The notes: generated by a model not told the origin, from the sequence alone. Shown: positions 5,336-55,584, counted from the stretch's first letter. The stretch is 64,000 nucleotides of DNA from Ginglymostoma cirratum (GCA_024137785.1 JAHRHZ010000038.1:7516444-7580443), one strand, 5' to 3'. A program made the numbers and translations.

Positions 5336-5371
5336 GCGTCAATAGGTTTAAGTGAATTGCACAGGAAGCCA

Positions 5372-11135: not shown

Positions 11136-11329
11136 GAATTATTTTTAAAGACTAAGCACAACCTCCCAAGCCCTTAAACAACATGGGCATTGGTGAGAAA
11201 GTTTGGAAAATATGCTAAGATCACTGGTAATGGGCCTCTTGGCACTGAGAGCAAGAAGTTCAATTCTCATTTCCCAAAACCCAGGTTTTGAACAGAGAGA
11301 AGAGAATTTCACTGGTAAGTGGTGAGGAG

Positions 11330-12278: not shown

Positions 12279-12389
12279 TACATATAATTGGTATGTGATT
12301 ATTATTTCATTTATATGCAGTTTCCTGTTCTTCCACCTCCCAGACAGAAACTAGACAGTGACAATTCCCAACATGAAAGTTGGAGCTCA

Positions 12390-13133
12390 CAGCTGACTCC
12401 TCTAGCTCTTATCTTCATGCTATCCAAGACGCAAATGCAGCAAAACCTGGATAATGTCCAGGTTTGTGCTGGCAAATGGCATGTGGCAAGAAGAACTCAG
12501 GCCAGATAATGACTGAACATCCATATAAATACAGTAGCCACAAGAGCAGGTCAGGCTAGAAATTCTGCAGTGCATAATTCACCTCCTGATTCCACCAGCT
12601 ACAAAGCACAAGTCTGGAGTGTGATTCAGTATTCCCCACTTGCCTGGATGAGTACAGCTGCAGCAACACTCAAGAATCTTGACACTATCAAGAATAAAGT
12701 AGCCTGCACGAATGGCATCTCATCCACAAACATCCACTCTCTCCACCACCAACACTCTGTAAGAGCAATGCATATCATATAAGATATGCACTGCACAAAT
12801 GCACTAAGGGTCCTTAGACAGCACTTTTCAAATACACAACCACTACCATCTTGAAAGACAAAGGGCAGCAGATACATAGGAACACCATCATCTGCAAGTT
12901 CCTCTCCAGGTCACTCACTGTCGTGACTTTGAAATATATTGTCGTTCCTTCAGTGACACTGGATAAAAATCCTGTAAGTCCCTCCCTAACAGTATTATGG
13001 ATGTTACCTACACCAAATGGACCTCAGCAGTTTGAGACTGCAGCTCACCACCACTTTCTCAAGGGAACCTGGGGATGGGCATCAAATGCTGGTCCAGCCA
13101 GCAATGCCTGCATCCTATAAATGAATAAAAAAA
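12390..13133 (+). mobile_element. Second tandem 5'-truncated LINE X copy
   Basis: YKAQVWSVIQYSPLAWMS peptide; same 3' tail ending atgaataaaaaaa. Confidence 0.85.
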
Positions 13134-13204: not shown

Positions 13205-13862
13205 GCTTACGTTAGACAGAGGTTCACTTACACATCCGTCGATGTGGTTTATTGCATCTGCTGCTCCCGAAGTGGCCTGCCCTACATCGGCGAGACCAAG
13301 CAGAGGCTCAGAGACTGATTTGTAGAGCAACTGCGCTCTGTTCATGACAAACAGCATCGCTTCCCGGTCACAAACAAGTTCAACTCCCCCTCCCATTCCC
13401 TGGGCAACTTGTCCATCCTGGGCCCCCTCTAATGTCGCAATGGAGCCACCCAAAAACTGGAGGAGCAGCACCTCGTATTCTGCCTCAGGAGCCTACAGCC
13501 CAATGGCCTTAATGTGGATTTTACCAGTTTCAAAATCTCCCCACTCCTGGCCTCATCCCATGAGTAATGCTCCCTCTCTTCCCCGCCTCCTTTACCTGAC
13601 ACAACCTGTCCATCTTCTCTCCCACCTTTCCGCTCCTCCCACCTCACTGACCAATCCCCAACACTCCCAACCTGCACTCACCCATCATCATCCCACCTAC
13701 CTTCCCCAGCCCCACCCTCCTCTCCCTATTTATTTCTGAGCTCCCTTCCCCTTCCCCATTTCTGAAGAAGGGTCCTGACCCTAAACGTCAACTTTCCTGC
13801 TCCTCTGATGCTGCCAGAACTGTGTTGTTTCTGACTCCAGAATCTGCAGTTCTTACTATCTT
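13205..13862 (+). mobile_element. Penelope-like element 3' fragment (GIY-YIG endonuclease and tail with degenerate hammerhead)
   Basis: FTYTSVDVVYCICCSRSGLPYIGETKQRL; C-rich tail; CTGAAGA-AGGGTC-CT-GACCC-TAAA-CGTC at 13762 (GAAA mutated to TAAA). Confidence 0.88.
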
Positions 13863-20759: not shown

Positions 20760-21410
20760 GGTTTTCTTTCATGGGACGTGGGTATCCCTGGCTAAGCCAG
20801 CATTTATTGCGATCCCTACTTGCCCTTGAGAAGGTGGTGGTGAACTGTCGTCTTCTACCACGACAGTCCATTTGGCGTAGGTAGACCCACAATACTGTTA
20901 AGGAGGGTGTTCCAGGATTTTTACCCAGTGACAGTGAAGGAACAATGACCTATTTCTAGTCAGGAAGTTGAGTGGTTTAGAGAACTCACAGGTGGTGCTA
21001 TTCCCATGTATCTGCTACCCTTGTCCTTCTAAATGGAAATGATCATGAGTTTGGAACTTGCTGTCTAATGAGCACAAATGAGTTGTTCTAGTGTATGTTG
21101 TAGATGGTATATACTGCTGCTACTGTGCATTGGTTGTGGATATGGTACCAATCAAGCAGGCTGCTTTGTAGCAAATGATGTCAGCCTTCTTGAGTGTTGT
21201 TGGAACTGTAATCGTTCAAGCATATGGAGAGTATTCCATCACATTCCTGATTTGGGCCTTGTAGATGGCAGGCTGGTTATGAGGAGTCATAAGGTGAGTT
21301 ACTTGCTGCATGATTCCTAGCCTTTGATCTCCTCTTGTAGACACAGTATATATATATGACTAGGCCACTTCAGCTTCTCGACAAACGTAATCCCCTGGAT
21401 GTTGATAGTA
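20760..21410 (-). mobile_element. 5'-truncated LINE X copy
   Basis: 'catgggacgtgggtatccctggctaagccagcatttattgc..cttgcccttgagaaggtggtggtga' is the reverse-complemented tail. Confidence 0.8.
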
Positions 21411-22468: not shown

Positions 22469-22516
22469 GTTTGATATCATACACTGAGTACTTATTCCTT
22501 CTTGGTATTCTGACAA
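22469..22516 (+). CDS. MICU2: MICU2-like coding exon (48 nt; G-LISYTEYLFLLGILT-K)
   Basis: Long poly-T tract then ccaatAG acceptor; A|gtaagt donor; GLISYTEYLFLL is the MICU2/3 signature; phase 1 to phase 1. Confidence 0.96.
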
Positions 22517-24960: not shown

Positions 24961-26084
24961 AATACCAGCATAGTATTAGAATTATCTTTAAACCTTCCAA
25001 TGTTATGCTGCTGAGAATTGCTGAATATTTTTCAGTGCGGATTCATTTTCTATTCAAGATATTGGTGCTATTTGTACCTCCTAATCCTAACTCTCACATC
25101 TGAGGAGGAAATTTCAATGATATTGCTAAAAGCCCACAAAGTGCATTAATAATGTCCACTGAAGGAGCAGAATCTGACAGTGAATACCACCTCACTCCCA
25201 TTCAGGCATACTATCGAAACCTGTAGTAGCATGGAAAGTACCTCACACTGTGAGGAACCTGACAGAAGGAGGTACTACATTAATTCTCCTCTAACCCTTT
25301 TGTCACTGTGTACGAGGAGTGATTTGTTGTGATTGAGACACTTTTGTCATCAAGATGATATAATGGAAGTAAACTCTTCAAAACTATTGCCTAGGGTCAC
25401 TACACACCTGCACACACAGAAGGGAAGGGTTGAGTTACTCTGGGCAGAGCTGAAGCTACTGATCCATGTCCTCTTCCTTCTCTGAGTAAGCAGCATCCCA
25501 CAAAAGTGAGATCAAAGGAAAATCTCGTTGGTTCCTGAAACCTGCCTGCAAGATTAAATTTAAAAATATTATTTTAGAAAATGTATTTTTTAAAGAAAGG
25601 TATACATTTAAGAAAATGTAAGAACTGTGTAGAATATTTGAAAAGGGAAGCTTAAACAGCATTGTGGAAATTTGCTAAAAACTTCCAGTAAAGTTACTAA
25701 ACTAATAAAAATTAAGTAGTAAAATTCCGTTTTGCCTTTAGCAACTGGAGACCCACATTACCTAAGGCACTGCCTGTTACTCATAATCATTGGGCAATCA
25801 CAGAAGTAATTGTAGGCCAGTAATAAACCTTGTCTGCTCTGTCAGTTACAAGGATGCAACTCTGATGATTGTCACCCACGTAGAAAAAGTAATTACTTAG
25901 GATGGATTCTTGATGTTAGTCAGTGTATCTCCCACCCCTTATAACTGTGCCGTACGCATTCCCAGTTTTGCACCTTTGATTAGTTTGGATACACACTGGT
26001 CTAAGCACCAAACACAGAGGAATCCAACTCATAGACTTCTGCTTACAAAATAATGTTAATGAGAGGACTTTCTTATGCTTACAG

Positions 26085-26167
26085 AGCCACACACTGGATT
26101 CCATATTGCCTTTAGTATGCTGGATACTGATGGAAACCAACAAGTGGAGAAAAAAGAATTTCTAGTG
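26085..26167 (+). CDS. MICU2: MICU2-like coding exon (83 nt; K-PHTGFHIAFSMLDTDGNQQVEKKEFLV) containing EF-hand 1
   Basis: cttacAG acceptor, GTG|gtaatt donor; canonical EF-hand loop D-T-D-G-N-Q-Q-V-E-K-K-E; GFH and MLDTDGN favour MICU2 over MICU3. Confidence 0.95.
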
Positions 26168-26700: not shown

Positions 26701-27607
26701 CACAGGCAAGGTTCCAGAGGAGTGAAGATTAGCTAATGTTGTTCCCTTGTTTAAGAAAGGAAGCAGGAATAATCCAGGAAATTATAGGCGGGTGAGTCTG
26801 ACTTCTGTGGTGGGAAAGCTCTTGGAGAAGATTCTGAGGGACAGGATATTTGCACATTTGGAAGAAAATGGACTACTTAGCGACAGGCAGCATGGTTTCA
26901 TGCAGGGAAGGTCATGTCTCACCAATCTGATCGAATTTTCTGAAGAGGTGACAAAGATAATTGATGAGGGAAGAGTTGTGGATGTAGTTTACATGGACTT
27001 TGGTAAAGTATTTGATAACATCCCACATGGCAGGTTGGTTCAAAAACTAAAATTACATGGGATTCGGGTTGGGCTGCCTAGATGGATACAAAACTGGCTT
27101 GGTCACAGAAGACCGAGGGTAGCAGTGGAAGGGTATTTTTCAGAATGGAGACTGGTAACTAGTGGTGTTGCACAGGGATCAGTCTGAGGTGCTCTGTTGT
27201 TTGTAGTATATATAAATGATCTGGAGGAAAATGTGGGTGGTCTGATTAGTAAGTTTGCAGATGACATGAAGATTGGTGGAGTTGCTAATAGTGCCAACGA
27301 TTGTGAAAGGATACAACAGGATATAGATAGATTGGCGACTTGGGCACAGAAATGGCAGGTGGAGTTTAATCCAGACAAATGAGAGAATTTGCATTTTGGA
27401 CGAACAAATTTAGGTGTGAATTATACTCTAAATGGCAGAACCCTTCGGAACATTAACATACAGACGAATCTGGGCATGCAGGTTCACGGTTCCCTAGAAG
27501 TGGCAACACAGGTGGCCAAAGTGATTGTAAGGGATATGGCATGCTTGCCTTCATCGGCCAGAGCATGGAGTACAAGAGTTGGCAAAACATATTGCAGCTA
27601 TATAAAA
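26700..27607 (+). mobile_element. CR1 LINE RT segment, relatively young
   Basis: ORFs FKKGSRNNPGNYRRVSLTSVVGKLLE...QHGFMQGRSCLTNL...SGVAQGS and YINDLEE..SKFADDMKIGG; cut off at 27608 by a PLE insertion. Confidence 0.93.
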
Positions 27608-27706
27608 GAGATAAAAGGTACTGCAGATGCTGGAGAATCCGAGATAACAAGCATGGGGCTGGATGAACACAGCAGGTCAAGCAGCATCATAGGAGCAGGA
27701 AAACTT

Positions 27707-27734
27707 GACGTTTCGGGCCTAAACCCTTCATCAG
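27707..27734 (-). ncRNA. Minimal hammerhead ribozyme motif (PLE type)
   Basis: Reverse complement reads CTGATGA-AGGGTTTAGGCCC-GAAA-CGTC. Confidence 0.7.
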
Positions 27735-27817
27735 AAATGGGGGAGGGGAAGAGGGTTCTGAAATAAATAGGGAGAGAGGGGNNNNNNNNNNNNNACCCTT
27801 CATCAGAAATGCCATTT

Positions 27818-27845
27818 CTGATGAAGGGTTTAGGCCCGAAACGTC
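27818..27845 (+). ncRNA. Minimal hammerhead ribozyme motif (PLE type)
   Basis: CTGATGA-AGGGTTTAGGCCC-GAAA-CGTC; intact core, palindromic ACGT stem III, GUC cleavage triplet. Confidence 0.72.
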
Positions 27846-27944
27846 AAGTTTTCCTGCTCCTATGATGCTGCTTGACCTGCTGTGTTCATCCAGCCCCATG
27901 CTTGTTATCTCGGATTCTCCACCATCTGCAGTACCTTTTATCTC

Positions 27945-30635
27945 TGATACATCTTCCTCCTTGTCTGGTATGACCCTAACCACCAGAGATTTTGCCCCCG
28001 ATACCCATTGATTCCAATTTTGCTAGGGGTCCTTGATGCTATACCCAGTTGAATGCAGCCTTTATATCAAGAGCTTTCACTCTCACCTCCGCATTGGAAT
28101 TCAGCTCTTTTGTTCATGTTTGAAACACGACTGTAATGAGGTCAGGAGCTGAGTGCCCCTGGCGGAACCAAAACTGGGCATCACTGAGCAGGTTATTGCT
28201 GAGCAGGTGCTGCTTGATGGCACTGTTGATGATTTCTATCACTTTACTGATGTTTGAGAGACTGATGGGGCAGTAATTGACCAGGTTGAATTTGTCCCAC
28301 TTTTTATGTACAGGACATACTTGGGCAATTTTCCACATTGTCGAGTAAATGCCAGTGTTGTAACTGTACTGGAACAGCTTGGCCAGGGGAGTGGCAAGTT
28401 CTGGAGCACACGTCTTCAGCACTATTGCCGGAATTTTGTCAGGGCCCATAGCCTCTGCAGTATCCGGTGTCTCCAACTGTTTCTTGATATCACTTGGAGT
28501 GAATCGAATTGGCTGAAGACTGGTGTCTGTAATGCTGGGGACCACTGGAGGAGGCCAAAATGGATCATCAACTCGGCACTTCTGGCTGAAGGTTGCTGCA
28601 AATGCTTCAGCCTTAGCTTTTGCACAGATGTGCTGGGCTCTTCCATCATTGAGGATGGGGATATTTGTGGAGCCTCCTCCTCCAGTGAGTTGTTTAATTT
28701 TCCACCACCATTCACACCTGGATGCGGCAGGGTTGCAGAGCTCAGTTGGATCTGTTGGTTGTGGGATCGCTTAGGTCTGTCTATCACTGGCTGCTTTTGC
28801 TGTTTGGCATGCAAGTAGTCCTGTTTGGTGCTTCACCAGGTTTGCACCTCATTTTCAGGTATGCCTGGTGCGGATGGTCACTCTTGCCGATACTGTCATG
28901 GACAAATGCAACTGCAGCTGGCCAATTGGTAAGGATGAGGTCAAGTATGTTTTTCCCTCTTATTGGTTCCCTCACCAAGTGCTGCAAACCCAGTCTAGCA
29001 GCTATGTCCTTTAGGACCTGACCAGCCTGATCTTTAGTACCGCTGCCAAGCCACTCTTGGTGGTGGACTTTGAAATGCCCCACCCAGAGTACATTTTGTG
29101 CCCTTGCCATCCTGAGTGCTTCCTCCAAGTGTTGTTCAACATGAAGAAATATTGATTCATCAGCTGAGGGAGGACAGTATGTGGTAATCAGCAGGAGGTG
29201 CCTGTACTTAACCTATTGCCATGAGACTTCATGGGGTCCACGGTCAATGTTGAGGACTCCCAGGGCAACACCATCCCGACTGTATACCACTGTGTCGCCA
29301 CCTCTGCTGGATCTGTCCTGCCGGTGAGACAGGACATATCCAGTGATGGTGATAGTGGTGTCTGGGACATTTTCTGTAAGGTATGATTCCGTGAGTATGA
29401 CTATGTCAGGCTGTTGCTTGACTAGTCCGTCAGACAGCTCTCCCAATTTTGGCTCTAGCCCCCAGATGTTAGTGAGGAGGACTTTGCAGGGTTGACAGGG
29501 CTATTTCTGCTGTTGTCTTTTCCGGTGCCTAGGTCAATGTCAGCTGATCCATCTGGTTTCATTTCTTCGAGATTTTGTAGCCGTTGGTACAACTGAATGG
29601 CTTGCTGGGCCATTTCAGAGGGTAATTAGGAGTCAAACCACATCACTGTGGGTCTGGAATCATATTTAGACCAGACCAGGTGAGGACAGCAGATTTCCTT
29701 CCCTGAAGGCCTTCCCCACCCTTATCTGACTTCTGTACGGACTTCTCTCTCCGCAACTTCCTCGTCCGCACCACACTCCCCACCGGCACCTTTCCCTGAA
29801 ACTGCAGGAAGTGCTACATCTACCCCTACACCTCCCCCCTCACCTCCATCCCAGGCCCCAAAAAAACCTTCCACATCAGACAGATGTTCACCTGCACATT
29901 CGCTAATGTGGTCTATTGCATCCGCCGCTCCTGATGAACCGCAGAGGCTCGGAGATCACTTTGTAGAGCACCTGCGCTCTGTTCACGACAAACGACAACA
30001 CCTTCCGATCGCCAACCATTTCAACTCCCCCTCCCACTCCCTGGATGACATGTCCATCCTGGGCCTCCTCCAGCGTCACAATGACGCCACCCAGAAACTG
30101 GGGGAGCGGCACCTCATGTTCCACCCTGGGAGCCTACAACCCAATGGTCTCAATGTAGACTTTAATAGCTCCAAAATCTCACCACCCCCAGCCTCATCCC
30201 ATGACCAACTTTCCCTCTTATCCCCGCCTCCTTGACCTGTCTGTCTTCTTTCTCATCTACCCACTCCTCCCACCTCATTGACCAATCCCCACCACTACTT
30301 ACCTGAACTCACCTATCACCATTCCACCTACCTTCCCCAGCCCTGCACCCCTCCCCCATTTATTTCAGAGCCCTCTTCCCCTCCCCAATTTCTGAAGAAG
30401 GGTCCCAACATCAGCTTTCCTGCTCCTCTGATGCTGCCTGGCCTGCTGTGTTCCTCCAGCTCCACACTGTGTTATCTGTGAATCAGATGGGTTTTTCTGA
30501 CAATTGACAATGATTTCATGGTGATCAGTAGATTCTTAATTCCACCATCTGCTGTGGCGGGATTTGAACTTGGGTCTCCAGAATGTTGGCTGAGCTTCTG
30601 GATTAATAGTCTGGCAATAATGCCATGTGGTTGTC
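27945..30635 (-). mobile_element. 5' half of tRNA-headed CR1-group LINE X (head, EN and RT start), interrupted by a PLE at 29710-30477
   Basis: ORFs LVKQQPDIVILTESYL (APE endonuclease), NILDLILTN..SDH, LFQYSYNTG..WKIAQVCPVHKK..QFWFRQGHS; head with B-box GTTCAAATCC (reverse complement at about 30560). Confidence 0.9.
29710..30477 (+). mobile_element. Penelope-like 3' fragment nested in the LINE X 5' region
   Basis: Zn-knuckle (CRKCYIYPY), QRLGDHFVEHLRSV...LQPNGLN GIY-YIG C-terminus, C-rich tail with partly deleted hammerhead. Confidence 0.88.
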
Positions 30636-31199: not shown

Positions 31200-32564
31200 G
31201 AGGCTTCCAGCGGTTTTGAGGAAACAATGTTCCAGACATCTTCTGGCAGTTGTTACTGGATATCCTTAATAAAGGCTAAAATCACTCTTAGAATAACAAT
31301 AATTGTATCAAAATCATTTTTAACATTCAACATTAGGAATTATATCATTGCTATGAAGAAATGTTTAAATCGGCAATCTGTGATGACCTTTTTGAAGACC
31401 ATTTTTGAAGACTCTGGTATTCGGATTTGTACTGTAATTAATTCTGGGCAATTTGAAGACCCAATATTTCACTATGATAAAAACTGTGAAGCCATTTTCT
31501 TTACAAGTTTTGCTTTCTATTCGCACCCTTTGAAAATCATTCCTAGATTCTTCAGCAAATTCAGATTACAGCATTGTAATATAATATATGCTTTAGGCAC
31601 ATTTGAAATTAAACAAAAATTAAATGACATTTTAACAGTAAAATGTGTTTGTCTGATTTTCAATGAGGATTCCATCAAAATTACTAATGTTAATTTTCTG
31701 TGAAACAGTAGGTCAAATAACATACGAACATCAGTGAAGACACCTTCACCTCAGGCAATAACAGCAAGGACTTGATGTTTGTCAAAGGCAAGGATTGTTT
31801 GCTAGAATTCCAGGGTTTTAAGAATGGGGCGATTTATGTGAAATGTGTTTATTCTGTCAGGTATGAGGAAGACTTTATTGTATGACCTTTAGAGGTTACA
31901 TAAGTCAAATTTTTGAAAGCACTGTCATTGTAAATTTAAAACAATCATGTTTCAGAAACCAGCAAATGCTAGTGCTCAATTGTTTTAAAATGCCAGCTAG
32001 GCACAGCTAAAAGTGAGAAATGCTGCTATGCCAAGCTGTAGAGCTGTGCATTTGACCTTGACTTCTGTAGTTGCTTTTAAAATTCAGTTCTTCCTTCCTT
32101 ATCTCAAACACCACTTCCAGCAAAGCTGTTGTCGCCATGCAGTCCCCTTTGGCCTGAAGGAGGAAGGTGTTCGTATGAACTAATTTCCCATAAAACCTGA
32201 CCATCTTGAACACGTGATCATTCAAATTCATAATCATAATAAATATCAACTTTCCATTCCGAACAAAATTGAAGTCTTCAGCTGGAATTCTGTGCTGCTA
32301 CTGGCAGTGTGAAGTGAAGTGGATGGGTATAAGATGCAAAACGGCAGGCTCCCAACAGCAGGATGAAAATAGAGAATGAAGGTTGCGACAGAGCAAGCCA
32401 TGGGAGCCTCTTTTTCATGCATCAGGGTATCCTGTGTATTCATTAAAACAACATTTTGTCAGATTATTTGGTACCTTTTCAATTCTCTCTGCAGCAAGTT
32501 AGAACTACAGGCCTTCAGATTCATAACTGCTTAGAGATGGTATGTAGCAGGCAAGGTAGTCATG

Positions 32565-32750
32565 CTATAACAAAATATTGTGGAAGCTGGAGATGCAAAA
32601 TAAGAACAGAAAGTGCTGGAAAAACTCAACAGTTCTGGCAGAAAGAAACAGAATTAATGTTTTGAGTCCAAACTGACTGTTCTTCATTCCGAGCAGAACC
32701 ATTGGGCTCTAAACATTAACTCCATCTCTCTATCCACAGATGCTGAGGTC
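32565..32750. mobile_element. Old, decayed palindromic PLE-tail element
   Basis: Left arm 'gctggaaaaactcaacagttctggcag..cagaattaatgtttt' and right arm 'aaacattaactccatctctctatccacagatgctg' are opposite-orientation tails. Confidence 0.55.
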
Positions 32751-34844
32751 ATCTTCCTGATGGTTTTAGATTAAGTAGGATCTTCTTTTCTTTCACTTGT
32801 TGCTTTGTTGAAAATTGTGAGAGAAACCATTAATGCATAGGAATTGGTTAAACTATATGCAAGGGGAGCAGGGCATGGCTGACTGAGGGAGAAAGGATGC
32901 AGGGTGATGGCTGCGCAAGTGTGACCTGGCATGGCTGATCGAGGGAGGGAGCAATGACTTGTGGTGGACATATTAGGGCTTAGGGCTCGTCCAGGACAGA
33001 AGATAGAAACTAGAATATACAGGAAAGTCAATACCTACAAATGGGTGGTCAAGTATGCCAGTAGGGAGATGCAGGGTTTCAGGTGTACCAGATGGACGAT
33101 ATTGGGGAAGCTCTAGGGTAAACAAAGGCTGAGCATGTGTGATCATGGGTAACTCAACTGCAATGAAGGCAGGATGTGGAAGGTGAAGTGGGGGTCAGGG
33201 ATAATGCAGGAAAGATCAAGAAGGATGGTCTCAATCTCAAGGGTCAATCTGGGACTGCCTAGCAACATAGCTGCGACAACACTAAGAGTCATCTCTACAG
33301 ATCAGAAATGGAGATGTCCATAATGGAGTTGGTAGAGACCAGGGTGATGATGATGCAAAGAATAGTGTTCCCCATTTATCAAAATTTCCCAGGTCAGAAG
33401 TGACATCATGAAGATTGTGCTGGCCAGATTTTTACCATCTCTGCAGTTCACTTCAGATGGTTAAGGGCATCCAGAGTCTGCTATCTCTGGCATATCCTGA
33501 AGAAATCAATAGAAGGTGACCTGATGTCAGGCTCAACAATAACAGAACACCAAAAAAATGGATCATGCAGCTCAGGAGGATAACAATTTGGAGCCGGTGA
33601 GATGCCAGGCATTAACATCAAATTAAATGCACCACAGATGGACAGGCAAAGTCAGAGAGACTGAAGATGTCAAGCCTATTTGCACAACTGCAGGGGCAGT
33701 GATTTTGGCCTTACCTGCAGTGGGGGATGGCATCATTGGCAGAGGGGAGGAGGATAAGCAGCACTCTCTTGATGTGCCCTGAGATGACCCTCTGGTAGCT
33801 AGCTGGTGTTGCCCTAATAAGGCACCTCAATGATTTCAGGAGGAGGAGGGGCACTTAAGGGAAGTTGTGGTGTTTCATTCCCCTTTTGCCTTTGTAGTCC
33901 ATGGTTAAAGTGATGGAAGACAAATCTGAGCACATAAGCAACAGTCACAGAGTATTCTGTTAAACCTGGCTCTCTATCACAATCACCAATTTCTTCATGG
34001 AGTAAACTATACCCTCAAATGTTAGAGCCATTGACAGACCTCAGGACTTGTGTGGACTGTTCTACTTTTCTGTCAAGGCTGCACATGGCCTCTCACATTT
34101 CTGCCAGATGGTTCCTGTCCCTGCCCCCAAACTTCCATAAGATTTCTGATGGCTATTTCCAGGGGCAATATCACCTGCACAGAAATGTGAATGGTTTGCT
34201 ATACAATGTTCGGCAGTCAGAGACTTTAGTTTTCACAACTTCATCAAATGCAAAGATGTGTCTGTTTTACGCTCGCCAGATTGTGACTTAAAGTCTAATC
34301 ATGAAACCATGGATGTGAATACATCTGCACTGGTTCAGGGTATGAGGTGATGCTGTGTATAGCCTTGGACTGGACAGCTTCTTGCTTCCCAGAGGTGGAG
34401 TTTAGGCCTGGTGCAGGCTGATTTTATTATTTTTTATGAGTTTAAGTACCTGTAGTGGAGAACACATAGCATCAGCTGACAGTTAAGCATGTTCCCTTTC
34501 CCCATCACTACATTACACCTGTATCTTATATGCCCAGTCCTGAACACCAGGCTAGAGACACCATCATGCATGCTGGGCATGGATTAAGACCCCCTCTTGT
34601 GTCTGGTAGTTCCCAGTAGTTTGAAATAATCACACTGTTTGCAAAGATACTGGAGATAACATTAAATACATTTCTCGGATCTCACTGTGAATGGCAGGAT
34701 GACACAATGCTGGTCTGATACACTACTGTAATACAATAGTAAGTGATGTGGCATTTTGGATATACATGCATACATGTACGAAACAATATAGTCACCAACT
34801 ATTTTTGAATAATGTAACAACCTTCCTTTAAAATAATATAATTC

Positions 34845-40170: not shown

Positions 40171-41590
40171 AGAGGTTTGCTCCTCACAAACTCCACCCAC
40201 ATGAATTGAAGCTGGAGGACTAGGAAACAAGCTTGCTTGGGTCTGCTAAGGAGGCCTGAGGAGGAGGCAGACAGCAGTCAGTTTAAAAGTAGAGGCAGGT
40301 GTTGTATTGTTACATTATTGGAAAATATTTAGGAACTGTATTGTTATGCACATGTATACATCTAAATGCATGCCACATCACTCACCACTGCAGTACAGTC
40401 AGTGTTCAAAACAATAACGTATTATTCCACAGTATATTGTGAGTTCTGAGAAATAGATTCAACGACAGCCTCAGAGTCTGTGTGAAACAGTGTTCATTCT
40501 TTTAAAAATTTGTGAACATAAAACATTACAATGTGGCAGTAGGTGATTGTGACAAAATAAATTAAGTGATGAATTAGATTAAAAAAGAATTCAAGTCAGT
40601 GTCAGAGGAAGAGGAAAGGTCAATCAGACAAACATAAAAATATCAGAACCACAGCAATGACTGTTCAGTTCCAGCCCGCGGTGAATTGGGAGGAACTAAC
40701 ATTCTTAAAGATGCAAGTAGAAAGGAAAGGGTCGTCTACATGTTTTTATGGACAGGAGAGAAATGTTTAGATCTTTCCTATAGCTGGGAACAAAAGGAAA
40801 ACAGCAATAAAAATCCAGAAAAATAGTTCAAGAATTTCAATTCACATCTGCAACCCAAGTCAAAACATTGGACTCACCAATATGAATTTCTGAACTTGAG
40901 GTTGGAACTAGATAAGACTGTTGACAATTTCTTAGGGAGAGTGAGAAAATAGCCAGCAATGGTAAATCTGAAGAATTTGAGTGAGTGACTGATGAATCTC
41001 AACAACGCATGAAAATATGACAATGAAGAAATTCTTGGTGTCTTTCTAATATCAAAATACATTGTGTTTTACTTCAAAAAGGGATAAAATACGTCCCTAC
41101 CCCATTGCCTTTCGGTCTATTACTGAGCTGCCATTGGGTGAATAAGATGTCAATCAACCACCCTCCCTTCAGCCTGTTGGGGCCCTTAAATTGCCAGTTG
41201 ACGAGCTGCCGGCTTCTGGTGGGACATCCACTCCACACAAGGATTTTCAGGGGAAATTTCTTTCAAAAAAGCGGAGAAGCCTGACAGCAGGAAATAGACT
41301 ACCAGATTGTCTGTAAATCCCATCAACAGGCTCCCTTGCTGCAATCACCCGTGGTTTTATCACAGCAAATTCAGGTCTTTTGTCTTGATTGCTGCATCAG
41401 ACATGATCAACTAACTTGGCACAAAGAAAGGCCTGGGCCGGGGATCATTTGAACTATGAGGTTCAGCTGAGACTGTTGCTGGCAGAGACTTGTACCCACT
41501 AGGACAATGAAGGAATATATATGGAGATAACAAGGTGTGGAGCTGGATGAACACAGCAGGCCAAGCAGCATCATAGGAGCAGGAAAGCTT

Positions 41591-41618
41591 GACGTTTCGG
41601 GCCTAGACCCTTCATCAG
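41591..41618 (-). ncRNA. Minimal hammerhead ribozyme motif
   Basis: Reverse complement reads CTGATGA-AGGGTCTAGGCCC-GAAA-CGTC. Confidence 0.72.
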
Positions 41619-43018
41619 AAATGGGGGAGGGGAGGAGGGTTCTGAAATAAATAGGGAGCGAGGGGGAGGCGGATAGAAGATGGATAGAGGAGAGGATAGG
41701 TGTAGAGGAGACAGACAAGTCAAAGAGGCGGGGATGGAGCCAGTAAAGGTGAGTGTAGGTGGGGAGGTAGGGAGGAGATAGGTCAGTCCGGGGAGGACGG
41801 ACAGGTCAAGGGGGCGGGATGAGGTTAGTAGATAGGAGATGGGGGTGCGTCTTGAGGTGGGAGGAGGGGATAGGTGAGAGGAAGAACAGGTTAGGGAGGC
41901 GGGGACGAGCTGGGCTGGTTTTGGGATGCGGTTGGGGGAGGGGAGATTTTGAAGCTTGTAAAATCCACATTGATACCATTGGGCTGCAGGGTTCCCAGGC
42001 TGAATATGAGTTGCTGTTCCTGCAGCCTTCGGGGGGCATCATTGTAGCACTGCAGGAGGCCCAGGATGGGCAGCAGCAGGAACAGCAACTCATATTCAGC
42101 CTGGGAACCCTGCAGCCCAATGGTATCAATGTGGATTTTACAAGCTTCAAAATCTCCCCTCCCCCAACCCCATCCCAAAACCAGCCCAGCTCGTCCCCGC
42201 CTCCCTAACCTGTTCTTCCTCTCACCTATCCCCTCCTCCCACCTCAAGACGCACCCCCATCTCCTATCTACTAACCTCATCCCATCCCCTTGACCTGTCC
42301 GTCCTCCCCGGACTGACCTATCCCCTCCCTACCTCCCCACCTACACTCACCTTTACTGGCTCCATCCCTGCCTCTTTGACTTGTCTGTCTCCTCTACACC
42401 TATCCTCTCCTCTATCCATCTTCTNNNNNNNNNNNNNNNNNNNNNNNNNNNNNNNNNNNNNNNNNNNNNNNNNNNNNNNNNNNNNNNNNNNNNNNNNNNN
42501 NNNNNNNNNNNNNNNNNNNNNNNNCAGGGTTCCCAGGCTGAATATGAGTTGCTGTTCCTGCAGCCTTCGGGGGGCATCATTGTAGCACTGCAGGAGGCCC
42601 AGGATGGGCAGCAGCAGGAACAGCAACTCATATTCAGCCTGGGAACCCTGCAGCCCAATGGTATCAATGTGGATTTTACAAGCTTCAAAATCTCCCCTCC
42701 CCCAACCCCATCCCAAAACCAGCCCAGCTCGTCCCCGCCTCCCTAACCTGTTCTTCCTCTCACCTATCCCCTCCTCTCACCTCAAGACGCACCCCCATCT
42801 CCTATCTACTAACCTCATCCCGTCCCCTTGACCTGTCCGTCCTCTCCGGACTGACCTATCTCCTCCCTACCTCCCCACCTACACTCACCTTTACTGGCTC
42901 CATCCCCGCCTCTTCGACTTGTCTGTCTCCTCTACACCTATCCTCTCCTCTATCCATCTTCTATCCGCCTCCACCTCTCTCCCTATTTATTTCAGAACCC
43001 TCCTCCCCTCCCCCATTT

Positions 43019-43046
43019 CTGATGAAGGGTCTAGGCCCGAAACGTC
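43019..43046 (+). ncRNA. Minimal hammerhead ribozyme motif
   Basis: CTGATGA-AGGGTCTAGGCCC-GAAA-CGTC; stem II GGG/CCC, ACGT palindrome, weak stem I (TTT/AAG). Confidence 0.72.
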
Positions 43047-45276
43047 AAGCTTTCCTGCTCCTATGATGCTGCTTGGCCTGCTGTGTTCATCCAGCTCCAC
43101 ACCTTGTTATCTCGGATTCTCCAGCATCTGCAGTACCTATTATCTCTGAAGGAATATATATGTTTTGATAACAGAAATGAGGTTTAACAAAGGCACCTAT
43201 AGCAAAACATTGGAATCAATTGTAGCTTGTCACCAGTCCTGCCATTTGATACCAGCAAAGCATTTGAAACAATTCTTTTTTCAGACCATTGAGTTAAGTC
43301 TGGGTACCTTATTCACAACTCACTGTCATAGTGAGTCTGTGACTTAAGGTGTGGACAAGGGCTTGACTTGACTGAAATATAAAATAAAAGTTTTAAAAAC
43401 TGACAATTACAATGAACATCCCATGTACAAAAGACATTTGCAGCGATATCCCATTTTTTATTCATTTTTTTTTTCTATTATCAGAATACCCAAATTTAAC
43501 AAATGAAGGTTGATTTTTCAATGAAGATCAATTATTCAGAAACCTACTTTATCTGACATATGTCTCCTCTTTATTAACAGTTAAACTGAACATCTAAAAC
43601 TTCAAACATTTTTTATTGCTTAGAGTGATGATTCAGTAAAATTTATTCAGATATAAAATTCATGACAGCGTTGCCTCTTGGAGTTTATTGGTCTTTGCAC
43701 TATGTTGCTACACAAATAAATATAGAAAGAAAAAGTCTATACCGACATGAAATTGACTTGAACAATTTTGCTGAATTATGATAGAGAACTTATAACAAGG
43801 TACGATTAAAGAACTAGTACATGAGAGAAGAGTAAAGCAACACAAGAAGGCAGTGAACATCAAGCCAACAATTTTTTTTTGCACATGAGTTAAGAAGCCT
43901 GTTCACTTGAGGAATAATTGCTGAGGCCACAGCAATGCAAGCCTCAAGCCAGCTTTGATTAAGTAAGCCAGATCACTTCACTGTACCCTCTACATAACTC
44001 AACATGTATTTTAGCAAGAGAAATGGTTATTAATACCTCGACAATGAGCCCTTTGTCTGACAAAAAAGATGCTCCGGCAATTATGAGTTATTTCATCTTC
44101 CGTTGGCCTTGCCAACAATGTATCTTTGTTCTTCAAAATAATATACTTTGCAGATTCTTATAGACAGGACATTTAACACTGAAAGCCTTTTGCCATCAGC
44201 TTTTAAATAAGGATGACAACATCATATAACTGATAAGGCCCTAGGGACCCCCACACTATTCAAGCAGCTGACAGTTCCTTTGTTATTGGTTGTAGCGATA
44301 GTGATGTTGATTCTGGTTTTGGGGCCAGGAACAGACGGAGAACGGTAAATTGATCTGCAGTTCCTGCTACGGTATGAGAAACATTAAATCTTTCGAGGTC
44401 TGTAAGAGACTCATTTCAGTTAAAGGAAATCATTCAACAGTTCCAAAAAGTTCACGAATTGTATTGGGATGTGTTACATGGTTGAGTTAAATGTCTCAGG
44501 TGTCTATTGATCTCTTATAAGTTTGAAAGACGACGTATAATTTATGACTTAGTGCAATTTTAGTCATGGGTGCTTAAAAAAATGCCTTTTTGTAAGGCTT
44601 AATGAAAAATGTCAGACGAAACAACTTTTGAGTATTTACTAGTAAATGGTTTGTATTTATAAATAATGCCTCACAATCTTGTCCTACAACTATAGCTCGG
44701 TTTGTACTCTACTACAATATACCATGAAGTTATTAGAGGTGGAATTGCACTGGGATTCCCCAATAATTAGATTTTAATAGCTGTGCAATAGTGAGGGAAC
44801 CATTGTTCAGAGTTCAATCTATCCCCATGAGAGGATGCAGAATATCTTAGGTGTTCCTTTTTCAGTTTATGGTTGCTGTTTCAATATCTTGTTAAATGAC
44901 AGTCTTCTAATCACTCCCAATTATCAAATAAACACATTCCAATTGCTGTCAGAAGATACTATGTATTATTGGGTTGGATTAGAATGCTTACTATGAGGAA
45001 TAGAATATTCTTTATACAGCATTCCTAAATAATGCATGCAAGCATACGCCAACTGACTTCTTGGTTTAAAGACAAAATAACATAATTCAAACCACTTTTT
45101 TTTAAAGCTGCAGAGAATTAGGGGATTAAGAGCCATAGTGACAAAAGGCAATTGTCATCGCTCTCCAGTTGAGAGACATTTGGTTAATTGGAACCTGAGG
45201 ATAAGCCTTCCACAGGCATGGGTTAGGGCTAGGAATCATACCCTCATGGCACAGGATTAACGTTGTCTTTAATACA

Positions 45277-47607
45277 GGGAGGTGATGGTTTTGTGGTATT
45301 GTTGCTCCACAATAGATACCTGGTAAACCTTTGGGTCCCTGAGTTCAAACCCTACTGCGGCAGACAGTAGAATTTGAATTTGATAAACAAATCTGCAATT
45401 AAAAGACTAATGCTGGCTGTGAAACATTGCCAATTGACATTTTACAAACTGGTTCCCTACTGTGCTTTTGGGAAGGAAGCCTGCCATCCTTACCTCATCT
45501 GGTTTTGTCTCCAGGCTCACATAATGTGGTTGACTCTTACTTGCCATCTGAAATGGTGTCACAAGCCATTCTGTTGGAGCAGTTGCTAAAATGCCTCAGA
45601 TGGACTACATGGAAATGACACAGGCAAGCTTAGCTATGTCATCCCTGCAAAGCCTCCATGATCTAGCACCAAAACTAAGAGTGCTGTCTCACAACCTGCT
45701 TATGCATTAGCCTGAATCATCATAATGAGTCAGACCTCCCACTCAATATTCCCAGACAACACTATCAACCTCCCTGGAAATGTCCTGTCCTTCCTTCAGG
45801 ACCCGGGATCATTCTTGTAAACTTCCTCTGGACTCCCTCCAAGGCCAGCAAATCGTTCCTTAGATATGGGGCTCAAAACAGCTCGCAATTTTCCAAATGT
45901 AGTCTGACCATAGCCATATACAGCCTCTACAGTAGGAGGAGGCCGTGCAAGTTTCCTCATCCTCAACGATGGGGAGCCAAGCACTTCAGTGCAAAAGATA
46001 AGGATGAAATATTTGCAACAATCTTCAGCTGGAGGTGCCAAGTGATGATCAATCACAGCTTCTAACAGAAGTCCCCAGCATCACAGATGTGACTCTTCAA
46101 TTCAGTTCACTTTACACGATATCAAGAAATAACTGGAGGCACTGGATACTGCAAAGGCTAGGGGCCTTGACAACATCCTGCCAATAGTAATGAAGACATG
46201 TGCTTTAGAACTTGCTGTGACTGGAGCCGAGCTGTTTCAGTATAGCTGCACTGCTGATAACCACCTGACAGTGTGGAAAATTGCCCATGTTTGTCCTTTA
46301 TACAAAAAGGAGGACAAATCCAACCTGGCTAATTACTTCTCCATCAACCTACACGCGATTATCAGTGAAGTGATGGAAGTTATCATCAACAGTGCTATTA
46401 ATCAACATTTGCTGACTGATAAGCTGCTCAAGTGATACCCAGTTTGGGTTCTACCAGGGCCACTCAACTCCTGACCTCATTATAGACTCGATTCAAACAT
46501 GGACAAAAAAGCTGACTTCCAGAGGTGTGGCAAAAGCGACTGCCCATGGAATTACAGTCATATTTGATCGATAGTGACATCAAGGAGCCCTAGCAAAATT
46601 TAAGTCATTGGGAATTGGAAGGGAAATTCTCCACTGGTCGGAGTTATATGTGGCGCAAAGGAAGAAGGTTGTGGTTGTTGGAGGTTAGTTATCTCAGCTC
46701 CAGGACAGCTCTGCAGGGGCTTCTCATGGTGGTGTGCTCCTTCACGAGGTCAGAAGTGGAAATGTTCACTGATGATTGAACAATGTTCAACGCCAGTGGT
46801 AATTCCTCTGATACCTGAATAATATCAAGGCTTAGGATGATAAGTAGAATGTAACATTTGTGCCACACATTGCCAGGCAATGATCATCTCCAACAAGAGA
46901 GAATCTAATCATTGACTCTTGACATTTTCAACAGATTTACCATTCCTTATTGTGAACATCCTGCAGATGACCATTGACCAGAAACTGAACTGGATTAACT
47001 ATATTAATACAGTGGCTATAACAAAAGGTCATAGGCAGGAATCCTGCAGCATGTAACTCACCTCCTGAATCTTCAAAACCTTTCCAATGTGTACAAAGCT
47101 TAAGTCAGGAGAGTGATGGACAACGTCCAACTTGCCTGAAAGAGTGCATTTCCAACATCACTCAAGAAGCTTAATGTCATTCTGAACAAAGCAGACTACT
47201 TGATGGGCATCACATCTATAAACATCTGCTTCCTCCACCACCAATGGTCAGTAGCAGCAATGTGTGCCAACTACAAGATGCACTGCTAAAATTCACCAAG
47301 GTTTCTTAGAGATCATCTTCCAAACTCATGACTACTCCCATTGAAAAGGACAAGGGCAGCAGATACATGAGAATACCAACTGCAAATTCCCCTCAAAATC
47401 ATTCACCATTCTACCTTGGAAATATACCACTGTTCCCTTGGTGTCACTGGGTCAAAATCTTGGATCTCCCTTTCATGACAGCATAATGGGCATAGTTACA
47501 GTAAATGGACTGCAGCAGTTCAAGAAGACTGCTTACTATCACCTTCTGATAGACAACTAGGGCGCACAATAAATGCTGGCCCAGCGATTGATGCCCACAT
47601 CACATGA
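45277..47607 (+). mobile_element. Head-to-tail but decayed copy of tRNA-headed LINE X (part of EN/linker replaced by a CR1 fragment at 45795-45930)
   Basis: Head 'gggaggtgatgg..gagttcaaaccc..gaatttgaatt', EN start, MKTCALELAV..WKIAHVCPLYKK, RT 'atgttcactgatgat', and the shared 3' tail. Confidence 0.85.
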
Positions 47608-49729: not shown

Positions 49730-49965
49730 CAAGCTTGCCTCCAAGCCACTCACCACTCTGACTTGGAAATAAATCACTGTCCCTTCAGTGTTGCTGGGTC
49801 AATATCCTGGAATTCCCTCCTTAATGGTATTTTGGGTCAACCCACAACACGTGGATTGCAACGGTTCAATGAGGCAGTTCACCATCAACTTCTCAAGTGC
49901 AACTAGGATGGACAATAAATGCTGGCCTGCCAACGATGCCCATGTCCCACAAGTAAGTAAAAAAC
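49730..49965 (+). mobile_element. LINE X 3' tail
   Basis: 'ccaagccactcaccactctgacttggaaa..gcaactaggatggacaataaatgctggcc'. Confidence 0.8.
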
Positions 49966-50809: not shown

Positions 50810-52759
50810 AAAAGTCCAAAACTGTCCAAAACTACCTCCTGCCAAAAGTCCACAAACAGGACTGTCCAGGTAGACCCATTGTTTCAGCCTGCTCATGCCC
50901 CACAGAACTCATCTCTTCCTACCTTGACTCAGTCTTTTCCCCTCTGGTCCAATTCCTAATCACATACATCCATGTTTCATCTGACACCTTATGCCAGTTT
51001 CAAAGCTTCCAGTTTACTGTCTCCAGCCACCTCCTCTTTACCATGGATGTGCAATCCCTTTACACATCCATTCCCCACCAGGAGGGTCTTAGGGCTCTCC
51101 ACTTCTTCCTGGAGCAAAGACCTGAACCATCCCCACCCACCACCACCCTCCTCCGCTTGGCCGAGCTTGTCCTCACCCTCAACAACTTCTCTTTCAACTC
51201 CTCTCATTTTCTTCAGGTAAGAGGGGTTGCCATGGGTACCTGCATGGGCCCTAGTTATGCCCGTCTCTTCATGGAGTACGTGGAACATTCCTTGTTCCAG
51301 TCCTACTCCGGCCCCCACCCACAACTCTTTCTCCGATACAACAATGATATCATTGGTGCTGCTTCCCTCTCTCGTTTGGAATTGGAAAACTTCATCAATT
51401 TCGCCTCCAATTTCTGCCCTGCCCTCCCTTTCACCTGGTCTATCTCTGACTCCTCCCTTCCCCTCCTTGACATTTCTGTTTCCATTTCTGGGGATAGACT
51501 GGCCTCTAATATCCATTACAAACCCATTGACTCCCAAAGTTACCTGGTCTATACACCTTCACACCCCACTTCTTCTAAAGACTCCATTCCATTCTCTCAG
51601 TTTCTCTGTCTCCGTCGAATATGTTCGGACGAGGCCAACTTTGACAAGGGAGCATCCGAAATGTCCACCTTCTTCCTCAACTGATGATTCCCCAGCTCCG
51701 TTGTTGACAGAGCCCTCAACCAGGTCCGACCCATCTCCCACACTTTTACCCTCACCCCCTCTTTCCTCTCGCAACAGCGATAGGGTTCTCCTTATCCTTA
51801 CCTACCATCCCACCAGCATCCACATCCAGAAAATCATCAGACGCCATTTCCACCACCTCCAGCAAGATGCCACCACCAGACACATATTCCCCTCCCCTCC
51901 CTTGTCCGCCTACTGCAGGGACCATTCCCTCCAGGACACCCTGGTCCACATTTCCATCACCTCCAACACCTCCCCACAGCCCTACAGCACCTTCCCCTGT
52001 AACCAGCGAAGGTGCAACACCTGCCCATTTACCTCTTCCCTCCCCAGAATCCAAGGGCCCAAACATACTTTCCAGGTGAAGCAACACTTCACCTGCACTT
52101 CCAAGAATCTAGTCTACTGCATTCGCTGCTCACAATGTGGTCTTCTCTACATTGGGGAATCGAAGCGTAGACTTGGCGACTGCTTCGCAGAACATCTACG
52201 TTCTGCTTGCAAAAAAGACCCAGAACTACCTGTTGCCTGTCACTTCAGTGCACCACCTTGCTCCCTGGCCAACATCTCTGTCTCTGGCTTGCTACAGTGT
52301 TCCAGTGAAGCCCAACACAAGCTGGAGGAACAACACCTCATTTTCCGCTTGGGGACCCTACAGCCCTCCGGACTCAATATTGAGTTCAATAATTTTAGGG
52401 CCTAAACTCTCCCATGTCCCAGGCCCCACCCCACATACCAGACCTTGTTACCACGTAGCTTGCCATTACAAACCCCCTGTTGTTAGTCACTAACAGTCCC
52501 CATTAACAACTATTCACTCTCCCAGCCTGATCATTAGCAACTCCTTTGTCTGTCCAACTGTCTTTCTCTCTCTTTGGGCTCTATCCTATTATTTACTCCC
52601 AATCCCACCCACCTCCCTATTTTCTGCATATAAACAGACATTTTCCCAGCCACCATCAGTTCTGAGGAAGGGTCACCGGACCTGAAACGTTAACTCTGTT
52701 TTCTCCTTCTCAGATGCTGCCAGACCTGCTGAGCTTTTCCAGCAACTTTGTTTTTGTTC
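50810..52759 (+). mobile_element. 5'-truncated Penelope-like retroelement (Neptune type): RT, Zn-knuckle, GIY-YIG and hammerhead tail; pseudogenised
   Basis: YLLPKVHK..PGRPIVS; MDVQSLYTSIP; GVAMGT.MGP.YA.LFM; catalytic YIDD changed to YNND; CNQRRCNTC; NLVYCIRC..CGLLYIGE; 15-bp TSD ATA(G/A)TTTACTGTCCA at 50795-50809 and 52760-52774. Confidence 0.95.
52662..52691 (+). ncRNA. Minimal hammerhead ribozyme motif in the PLE 3' tail
   Basis: AGTT-CTGAGGA-AGGGTC-ACCG-GACCT-GAAA-CGTT-AACT; stem I AGTT/AACT, stem II GGTC/GACC. Confidence 0.75.
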
Positions 52760-53787
52760 ATAATTTACTGTCCACTGGGCAATAAGCACAGATCAGAGCC
52801 CTGGATTACCTATGCACAGATCAACCTTTCAAATTCCAACTTATGTTTTTATGAAGAAAACTAATTTAATCAAAATGACTGTCCACGTCTGTCTAGAGAT
52901 GAACTCTGGAATGTCACAACTGCAAGAGACAAAGACACTCCAAAGGGAGGAAATGCACTACATACTGAGCTGTAATCTCAGGAATTATGTCAGACTGTGA
53001 ACATTGCAGGTAAAAAGGCAACAGTTTGGGTGAGAGAAATGTTTTGAACTTTTCTGTTCAAGAATACACAAGAATGGAGGTTAAAAACTAATAGACTCCT
53101 TGCGTGGGCATGCCTGTGGAAACAGGTGTGCTACTGAACCGAGGTACCCATGTGCATTAGCCAGGGTTTGAGCATGAGTCAAAGGATTAGCCACTAGTTC
53201 ACCCCTGTGTTGCAGATTAAAGATTCTCTTGATCAAAGCACTAAAATTCAGCTCATTGGCAAGCTATGTCAACAGCAAACGCGACAAAATGAGGACTTTC
53301 TTGATCTGAGTGCTGTCAGACAACCATCGTCAAAAGGAACCGGCACCAAAAATATTCAAATAACCCGCAAAGTTAAAAATACTGAAATTAGCTGTTCAAC
53401 TATCAATGTTCCACCATCTACACTTCACTAATGACCCACAGACATTGGTCCATGTATATCTTTTAACTTTTTTTTTCACTCATTTCTCATTTCTAATGTG
53501 CGTATGTCTGCTGTGTTACTATTTTTTCTTGCCTTTAACAGCCAGTTACCCACTTCAACTCAAGCTTAATTGGCTCCTTCGAGAACAAAAATTAATTCAG
53601 TCAAGGAGAAAGGTCTCCACAAGGGAGGGATCCTTTGGCAATTAACCATGTTCTGATCAATAGAGAGGGCGGGTCAATATAGAAGCGAACCAATTCACCC
53701 CTCCTCACTGGGAAGATTGACAATTTGGGGAATCTTATCTCAAACAATAATAACTTGGGAACCATTGTCTGGGCTCTGGTTATAACA

Positions 53788-54005
53788 AAGAATGTTGGAA
53801 ATCACGGCAGGTCAGGCAGCTACCATGGAAAGCAAGCAAGCTAATGTGTCAAGTCTAAGATGACTCTTGATCAGAGCTGTGATGAAGAGTCATCTAGTCT
53901 CGAAACGTTAGCTTCCTCCATCTCTATGGATGCTGCTGACCTGCTGTGATTCCAGCATTTTTTGTTTTCAGCACAGATTCCAGCATCTGCCGTAATTTGC
54001 TCTTC
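53788..54005. mobile_element. 218-bp palindromic PLE-tail mini-element with 14-bp TSD
   Basis: Symmetry centre AGCT (53875-53878) between two opposed degenerate hammerheads; CTCTGGTTATAACA at 53774-53787 and 54006-54019. Confidence 0.85.
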
Positions 54006-55584
54006 CTCTGGTTATAACAGTTGCCCTTCTTTGCTCCCTTAACCATCTTTTTTTCTCCAGCTGAAGGTGTTTTGGTTCCAGCAATGGATGCATTTTAGCT
54101 CAAACTATAAGAACAAGTTCACCTTTTGAGTGATTGCTCACCTGCTTGATGTTTAACTTGCCATGTTCTTGTCCATTACTCAGTACTCACAGTTACTTGT
54201 TTGTGTGTTGACTGTAGTATTCAATCTTGGAAACTTCTGCATTCATCAGAATTATGCTGCCCTAACAGGTTGTATTGGCTGCAGAGGTTCTGCTCTGCTA
54301 ATCAATCACTGTATGTCTTAGAGAAACATTATCTAGCTTTCAACTCATCTTTCATTGGCTCCAAGGCCTATTTTAATTTATTCTCCCTTGAATGTTTTGC
54401 CCTAACTCCTTACTACCTAACCCATATTTTAGCTATTTTACCTTCCCCTACTCCACGGCCTGACTCCCTCTCAGCCCAATAGTTTCCTTTTTGGCTTAGC
54501 AATCTCTGAAGGTGCCCCGCCAAGGCACCTATCACTGCCTTTTAGTGAGCCACAGTCCCAATTGTCCCATCAGCATTCTCACCAACTCTCCCTTTCAGCT
54601 TGTTTGCTGGAAGTTAATCTTGCCATCCTCCTGTACAGTCCTTTGATCTCTCCCACTGCTCATTCCATGCATATAATCAGTCAATGAAGCAACAATCACT
54701 GCCCCTCCTGGAATCTCCCTCCAGAATCAGTTCATTGCTAAACAAAGCCCTTGCCATCCATGACATTGTAGTTGATTGCATTAACATTATGGTCTTGACA
54801 GAAACTTGGTCTGTGATCTTTCCCTGACTGAAAAGTCTGTGACCTGTCTATTTTCCATCACCTGACCCATGCAAACCATTGTAGAGACGGCGAAATCCTC
54901 ATTACCAAATCTCGCCTTATTCTTTCTAATTACTCCTCTAGCATCTTCACCTTGAGTATTTGTTCTGTACTTCACACTGAAGCTGCACATAACTTTCTTG
55001 CTGAGATGCCCTTTCCCACCTTGTTCTTTGCACTGAATGAAATAATCTCTAGATTAGGACATGTGTATACAGGGCAAAATGAGTTTGGAACTATTTGAGG
55101 GGTAGAACATTCATACCTAGAAGCTTTACTGTAGAACATGGAGAGCTAAAAAGGCATGCAGAGCTGTCATAGGCCTGCATAGGCTTGTCAAGGTATCCAG
55201 TGGAGCTGAGGAATGGCCTGGATCAGTACTGCAAACCAATAGATCAAATAAGGCGGTGGAGGGAAACCTGCTCCCCCTTGCTAACTGATAACATTGGGGT
55301 GGTTTCTCCTTAGATGATCCCCTTTTTCACATCTACAGTTGTAAAAGGTTAATGCTGAGGGGTGCCTTAAGTACCACGTATTATGATGGTGTTACTTGGT
55401 TTTGATGAGAGAACAGCTTAGGATTTCAAAGGAGTATGACCTACTCTCCGAGTCCTCCTCGTAGTCTTTGTAATTTATTTAGGCAACTGAGTAGAAAATT
55501 AACAAACAAGACCTCAATTGTAATAACCTCTTTGACAGCTGCTGTCAAACCATAAGTACATACTCTAAATGTGATTGTTAGCAT

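Follow-up and report, generated by a model that had tools for sequence, protein, structure and literature searches.

A head-to-head pair of truncated Penelope-like copies within one 16-bp target-site duplication in Ginglymostoma cirratum

The canonical unit of an endonuclease-positive (EN+) Penelope-like element (PLE) includes an inverted truncated copy, a tail of 30–40 bp, a target-site duplication (TSD) and repeats of variable size, and it is troublesome to assemble. The legend of Fig. 2 in PMC8557442 (Craig et al. 2021) shows a 5'-truncated copy adjoining the 5' end in inverted orientation, with the tail often at one end only. The relevant sections of PMC3846280 (Arkhipova et al. 2013) and PMC2377424 (Schostak et al. 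2008) describe, respectively, inverted PLE units with 8–10-bp TSDs and PLE inverted repeats of variable size, and the inverted copy and one-ended tail are named as PLE peculiarities in PMC8969392. Here, we analyze a 64,000-nt stretch of Ginglymostoma cirratum DNA (GCA_024137785.1 JAHRHZ010000038.1:7516444-7580443), the window, in whose coordinates all positions are given. At 41508–43162 it holds a fold-back made of two 3' ends of a PLE placed head to head. This focal fold-back is its family's ordinary footprint, not a new kind of mobile element. The family shares all of the canonical features listed above; it differs in that both focal arms are heavily truncated and in that the family TSDs center on 14 bp.

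Other known systems resemble the focal unit in part. In L1 twin priming, a further cDNA is primed from the other target strand, giving a head-to-head junction within one TSD, but the second primer anneals internally and the two pieces do not overlap. Each focal copy instead begins at the 3' end, and the arms are therefore inverted repeats. Miniature inverted-repeat transposable elements (MITEs) and fold-back DNA transposons are, like the focal unit, short non-coding hairpins with a TSD, whereas in the focal family size, junction and TSD length all vary, the ends are asymmetric and the arms derive from a retroelement. Animal retrozymes are also hammerhead-bearing, non-autonomous PLE derivatives, but are arranged as direct tandem repeats. 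A biochemical counterpart is PAc, the Poseidon of Anolis carolinensis (Frangieh et al. 2024, PMC11167929). In the sections of that report concerned, both target strands are cleaved and extended in vitro, two reverse transcriptase (RT) start sites bound the tail, a dimer is predicted and ribozyme cleavage is dispensable. PAc belongs to another clade, and inverted units and TSDs are not dealt with in those sections.

In the focal insertion, an exact 16-mer stands at 41508–41523 and again at 43147–43162 (both + strand), with no third copy in the window, and the first 3 nt of the right copy equal the element's next 3 nt. Between them lie inverted arms of 503 nt (41524–42026 and 42611–43113) that are 98% alike, differing at 8 of 503 sites. 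The full left arm (41524–42072, − strand) is a 549-nt 5'-truncated 3' end that corresponds to 2008–2557 of the natural long copy L036 (97.3%) and ends at the tail-minus RT start site. The right arm (42611–43113, + strand) is a 503-nt 5'-truncated 3' end and continues into the 33-nt PLE tail (43114–43146, + strand), the two together corresponding to 2054–2590 of L036. The tail is found on the right side only. Its last 7-nt word is the same as that at the tail-minus end, and its outer end would be the second RT start site by analogy with PAc (PMC11167929). The arms are not nested, since 46 nt (42027–42072, − strand) belong to the left arm only, as its further 5' reach, and the tail to the right arm only. 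A relative's contig (run X2, record 9) joins 40500–41507 directly to 43147–44200 with a single 16-mer and thereby preserves the empty site. The sequence-only reading of this locus had proposed a head-to-head pair of Penelope 3' ends, arms of about 500 bp, a right-only 33-nt tail and a single insertion with a 16-bp TSD, and had named an empty site lacking one 16-mer as grounds for rejection; arm identity, the repeat scan and the relative's contig all agree with that proposal. Its 52-nt spacer needs correction: the unpaired center consists of element sequence and is 46 nt long, or 52 nt when one mismatch is left out.

The center of the unit is interrupted in the assembly. The arms meet bluntly between 42072 and 42073, a junction known from the focal locus only, and the right arm is then partially printed (42073–42424, + strand) up to a 100-N gap (42425–42524). 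Beyond the gap, the junction-proximal part of the left arm is printed a second time (42525–42610, − strand), followed by the right arm. Overall, 41987–42424 recurs at 42525–42962 (98.6%), which duplicates the junction; of the 6 differences in 438 nt, all lie in the 352-nt portion from the right arm and none in 85 nt from the left. Comparable overlaps flank 4 of 23 gaps examined. The 438-bp inner duplicate is likely an assembly artifact, possibly representing two haplotypes, although a real inner duplication could also account for it. The collapsed unit is then likely 549 + 503 + 33 = 1,085 nt. The fold-back itself is real; the contiguous palindrome previously read here had overlooked the gap and the 438 repeated bases.

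The family was surveyed in 58 query-selected 10-kb loci and three unselected stretches that together measure 684 kb, one containing the focal window. Among 76 candidate head-to-head pairs, both 3' ends could be classed for the tail in 52: 48 paired a tail-plus with a tail-minus end, three were plus/plus and one was minus/minus. With 14 pairs removed for N runs or arm identity below 84%, opposite-tail pairing held in all 38 gap-free two-armed units (26 selected, 12 unselected; P = 3.6e-12 against 0.5), while unpaired arms were split 45 tail-plus to 43 tail-minus. The PLE literature cited above treats this asymmetry qualitatively in the parts of PMC8557442, PMC3846280 and PMC2377424 that bear on it; here it is counted. 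A TSD of 10–19 bp (mode 14) was called in 28 of the 38 units, compared with none of 400 mismatched flank pairs. Among the 88 unpaired arms, 19 had a TSD in a wider search made without a null, and six of these 19 hid a short inverted end. Arm length ranged from about 35 nt to more than 3 kb and junctions from an 8-nt overlap to a 54-nt insert. Of the two arms, the tail-minus one extended further 5' in 17 units and the tail-plus one in 15; in six they ended within 10 nt of each other. In 22 of 24 cases, identity was higher between the arms of one unit than with the median outside arm (95.2% versus 93.2%). With 43 of 79 arms forming pairs across 656 kb, the asymmetric twin priming proposed below would have seeded, as a rough figure, on the order of 100,000 such hairpins in this genome. 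As a side observation, the letters flanking the tail-plus ends of the 38 units tend to repeat the element's next letters (T in 29, G in 21 and A in 21 at positions 1–3), hinting at a short stretch of primer–template pairing there. Raggedness is greater among the tail-minus ends.

Arm starts also cluster at one point, which we refer to as the 5' wall. Of the 71 arms in the unselected stretches, 20 begin at element positions 2457–2463, within −2 to +4 of the site equivalent to 43015, compared with one at 2451–2456, six at 2301–2450 and 12 at 2464–2471. None of the 71 starts at the ribozyme cleavage site, and ribozyme-cleaved RNA was accordingly rejected as the template. Joints at the wall position are also frequent in relatives' contigs. 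The wall lies 4 nt before the ribozyme and coincides with an initiator-like word, preceded by a TATA-like word at −31, words that we so name on the assumption that the usual consensus rules apply. At the focal locus they span 42984–43018 (+ strand), with a candidate transcription start at 43015. The wall could thus be where a cDNA primed in the 5' pseudo-long terminal repeat (pLTR) runs out of template, at the start of the transcript. Two other causes of the wall were rejected. A splice acceptor does not fit, as the sequence before the wall looks unrelated between copies when compared by eye, nor do divergent subfamilies, as the wall is also the junction in the TSD-bounded units L047, L057 and L071.

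We consider it likely that one insertion of a Neptune-type PLE, now dead, gave rise to the focal unit, both nicked strands of the target having primed synthesis and two 5'-truncated copies having been joined head to head within the 16-bp TSD. The GIY-YIG endonuclease would nick both target strands about 14–16 bp apart, and each nicked 3' end would prime cDNA on the element RNA, one at the tail-plus site and the other 33 nt upstream, at the tail-minus site. The two cDNAs would stop at independent points, host end-joining would fuse their ends, and fill-in at the staggered nicks would leave the TSD. Where the 5' pLTR copy of the RNA is primed instead, the cDNA would end with the transcript itself, shortly ahead of the ribozyme, yielding the many arms of 100 or 133 nt and the short hairpins. 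The empty site and the survey of 38 units support priming from both nicked strands, suggested earlier from the sequence, as the likeliest route. More tentatively, and with slightly less than even confidence, we propose that twin priming is obligately asymmetric, each start site being used once and one per strand, and that cDNA primed in the 5' pLTR of the RNA runs off a transcription start lying 4 nt ahead of the ribozyme. The in vitro study of the lizard element saw no difference in start-site use between strands, in the part of PMC11167929 on this assay, and the one-of-each rule therefore goes beyond it. If correct, asymmetric twin priming would bring the tail, the inverted pLTR and the TSD under one model, testable in that published in vitro system.

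Several points weigh against this reading. Four of the 52 unfiltered pairs are plus/plus or minus/minus; all have N runs or low identity, and one is a misjoin. No TSD was called in 10 of the 38 units, and the focal unit, being split by its gap, stands outside the 38. Arm similarity within units could come from gene conversion or equal age. The absence of strand bias in the lizard assay also counts here, in an element that is a Poseidon and not a Neptune (PMC11167929), as does the mapped promoter of D. virilis, which is internal and TATA-less, though within the pLTR, according to the promoter passage of PMC2377424. The promoter proposed here is read from sequence, and the evidence as a whole consists of finished insertions rather than intermediates or activity.

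The main rival, an origin by self-priming or template switching, would also leave a one-sided tail and near-identical arms. The inverted copy would here arise from a single priming event or from a head-to-head intermediate outside the chromosome and would be resolved by the endonuclease; origins of this type have been put forward in the Discussion of PMC3846280 and in PMC8557442. Consistent with it, the junction inserts of L041 (54 nt) and L051 (14 nt) look copied from elsewhere in the element; they resemble its far 5' region and are like templated end-joining inserts. Snap-back, however, needs nested arms, and 17 of the 38 units and the focal unit have arm-private sequence on both sides. Plain snap-back fails for the focal unit because each arm has sequence absent from the other. 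Both outer ends, moreover, lie at fixed start sites adjoining the TSD, and we regard this origin as unlikely. The 100-N gap and the 438-bp duplicate inside the unit, together with the misjoined example at 27.6 kb described below and a best-matching sequencing run that contains 0.45 of the query words, raise the further prospect that the fold-back is an assembly artifact or two unrelated neighboring insertions. Such an artifact fits the inner duplicate only: the flanks are adjacent in the relative with one 16-mer, the two arms differ at 8 of 503 sites, and 38 gap-free analogs obey the same rule. We give this explanation very little credence.

The palindrome could also be a non-autonomous element that mimics a MITE and moves as one unit. 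Two of our results might be taken in its favor, as one short junction beside the ribozyme recurs 43 times and similar junctions recur in relatives' contigs. At the focal locus, though, a 141-nt junction query found its full match nowhere else, with 38 of 40 scored places (from 983 candidates) matching one arm's sequence only, and the exact junction pattern has two matches in 4.36 Gb, both at the focal locus. The focal junction is unique; therefore, the palindrome formed in place and is not itself mobile as a unit, which refutes the MITE-like reading at this locus within the assembly. Elsewhere, the 38 clean units have 38 differing junctions, all are asymmetric, and their TSDs of 10–19 bp are not fixed in length. 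At least two subfamilies contain the recurring short junction, the two arms agreeing in subfamily; this distribution, judged by eye from 30 of the 43 matches (24 cut by gaps and two loci counted twice), fits convergence at a fixed stop point. Mobility of the palindrome is thus highly improbable. Cap-templated bases were considered as the source of the short junction and set aside, as a blunt join explains it equally well. Junction uniqueness had been proposed in the sequence-only reading as the means to separate a mobile palindrome from de novo formation at each insertion, and the outcome is the latter. The same reading had seen an undescribed class of MITE mimics lacking open reading frames (ORFs), a view that lacks support: arm lengths are continuous up to copies that are nearly full length and carry an ORF, and the architecture is published.

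What may be unpublished is the strict one-of-each rule together with the short arms that stop 4 nt before the ribozyme. Neither that rule, the run-off idea, this architecture as a named class nor twin priming in Penelope was found in the literature beyond the PLE papers cited here, of which subscription reviews (2005, 2006) and the supplements to PMC11167929, outside our scope, may hold the same patterns. The focal locus is one of very many dead insertions, and it is the population counts (38/38 pairing, TSDs of about 14 bp and the sharp 5' stop) that bear on the origin of the inverted pLTRs and one-sided tail of PLEs. Hairpins of this kind can pass for MITEs or microRNA precursors, and short-read assemblies are broken and misjoined by them, as happened at 27.8 kb and 42.4 kb.

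The parent family is very abundant in the genome. The long copy L085 carries an RT domain (RVT_1, 30.5 bits) and a GIY-YIG domain (24.0 bits), both over the Pfam cut-off; it is the one among eight ORF sets scanned that passes for both, the rest being broken or partial. The parent protein P0001 shares three features with the Neptune clade: an RT followed by a GIY-YIG at the C-terminus, two cysteines within the GIY-YIG motif, and a CX4CxxC linker. A linker of the CX2-5CxxC type marks Neptune and Nematis rather than Penelope and Poseidon in the clade descriptions of PMC8557442. Based on the linker and the GIY-YIG cysteines, the parent is classified as a probable Neptune-type RT+GIY-YIG PLE, with the caveat that Nematis has the linker too. 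An earlier 'Poseidon-type' label was dropped, as the linker zinc finger is present and the Penelope/Poseidon clade lacks it. The left arm retains the final 59 codons of the parent ORF with its stop codon (41891–42070, − strand), the C-terminal end of GIY-YIG by translation and by its match to the C-terminus of P0001, as the sequence-only reading had recognized. The tandem copy L078, whose 3' end with tail continues into the 5' region of the ORF, shows the pLTR or partial tandem structure. With this, the family displays an RT+GIY-YIG ORF, pLTR, 33-nt tail, hammerhead core, 5' truncation, inverted copy and variable TSD, the characters of EN+ PLEs. No microsatellite targeting was seen in the insertion flanks, and a PDB search with the parent protein returned no PLE structure and two matches at chance level. 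In L076, one near-full-length arm has its start where the tail begins, near position 5353 of the oriented sequence, suggesting that each monomer opens, at its 5' end, with the tail.

The hammerheads are present in reduced form. A core can be read on each strand, at 41591–41618 (−) and 43019–43046 (+), neither with a helix III loop, so that the claim of one intact hammerhead per strand stands for the cores but not for intactness: both are minimal motifs of the type in PMC4209133, and an Rfam search of the window at gathering thresholds gave no hit, hammerheads included. The minimum-free-energy fold of 43005–43146 did not form a hammerhead (z = −0.22). Minimal hammerheads of this type showed no monomer cleavage and need a dimer, according to the passage of PMC4209133 on these motifs.

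The same design had been reported at 27.6, 32.6 and 53.8 kb, a recurrence that is true of the last, weak for the second and chimeric for the first. At 53774–54020, a short fold-back belongs to a second, older hammerhead-bearing family and has a one-sided tail and a TSD of 14–15 bp. The candidate at 32560–32780 is decayed, with an arm score of 40 against a shuffled maximum of 31, and no TSD was found for it. The unit at 27594–27945 is plus/plus, lacks a TSD and is a chimera across a 13-N gap (27782–27794). The true partner of its left arm is on contig C264 (locus L186), with 100% identity over 140 nt followed by the 14-bp TSD of 27594–27607. The window is misjoined near 27.79 kb.

This misjoin bears on the gene context. 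Exons of a MICU2/MICU3-like mitochondrial calcium uptake gene lie on the + strand at 26074–26167 and about 22486–22503, supported by PDB matches (E = 6e-11), by spliced contigs in four of four runs and by the end of the upstream exon. The next exon is absent from the window and the surrounding 284-kb stretch and was found on another scaffold; the partner arm on C264 lies 17.8 kb before it. The fold-back had been placed in a host intron, but the exons at 22.5 and 26.1 kb lie beyond the misjoin, and therefore the MICU-like exons give no support to an intronic position of the focal unit. A Pfam scan of 121 stop-to-stop ORFs gave a weak EF-hand match at the MICU-like exon, one DUF far under the cut-off and no gene around 41.5 kb. 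Elsewhere in the window, older Penelope-like fragments, 68–85% identical to the family, occur at 13214–13822, 29710–30477 and 50832–52388. Another repeat family has copies about 70% alike at 10400–13130, 20764–21407, 46821–47607 and 49735–49949, and an inverted pair of 74–85 nt is found at 5372–5465 and 6583–6677.

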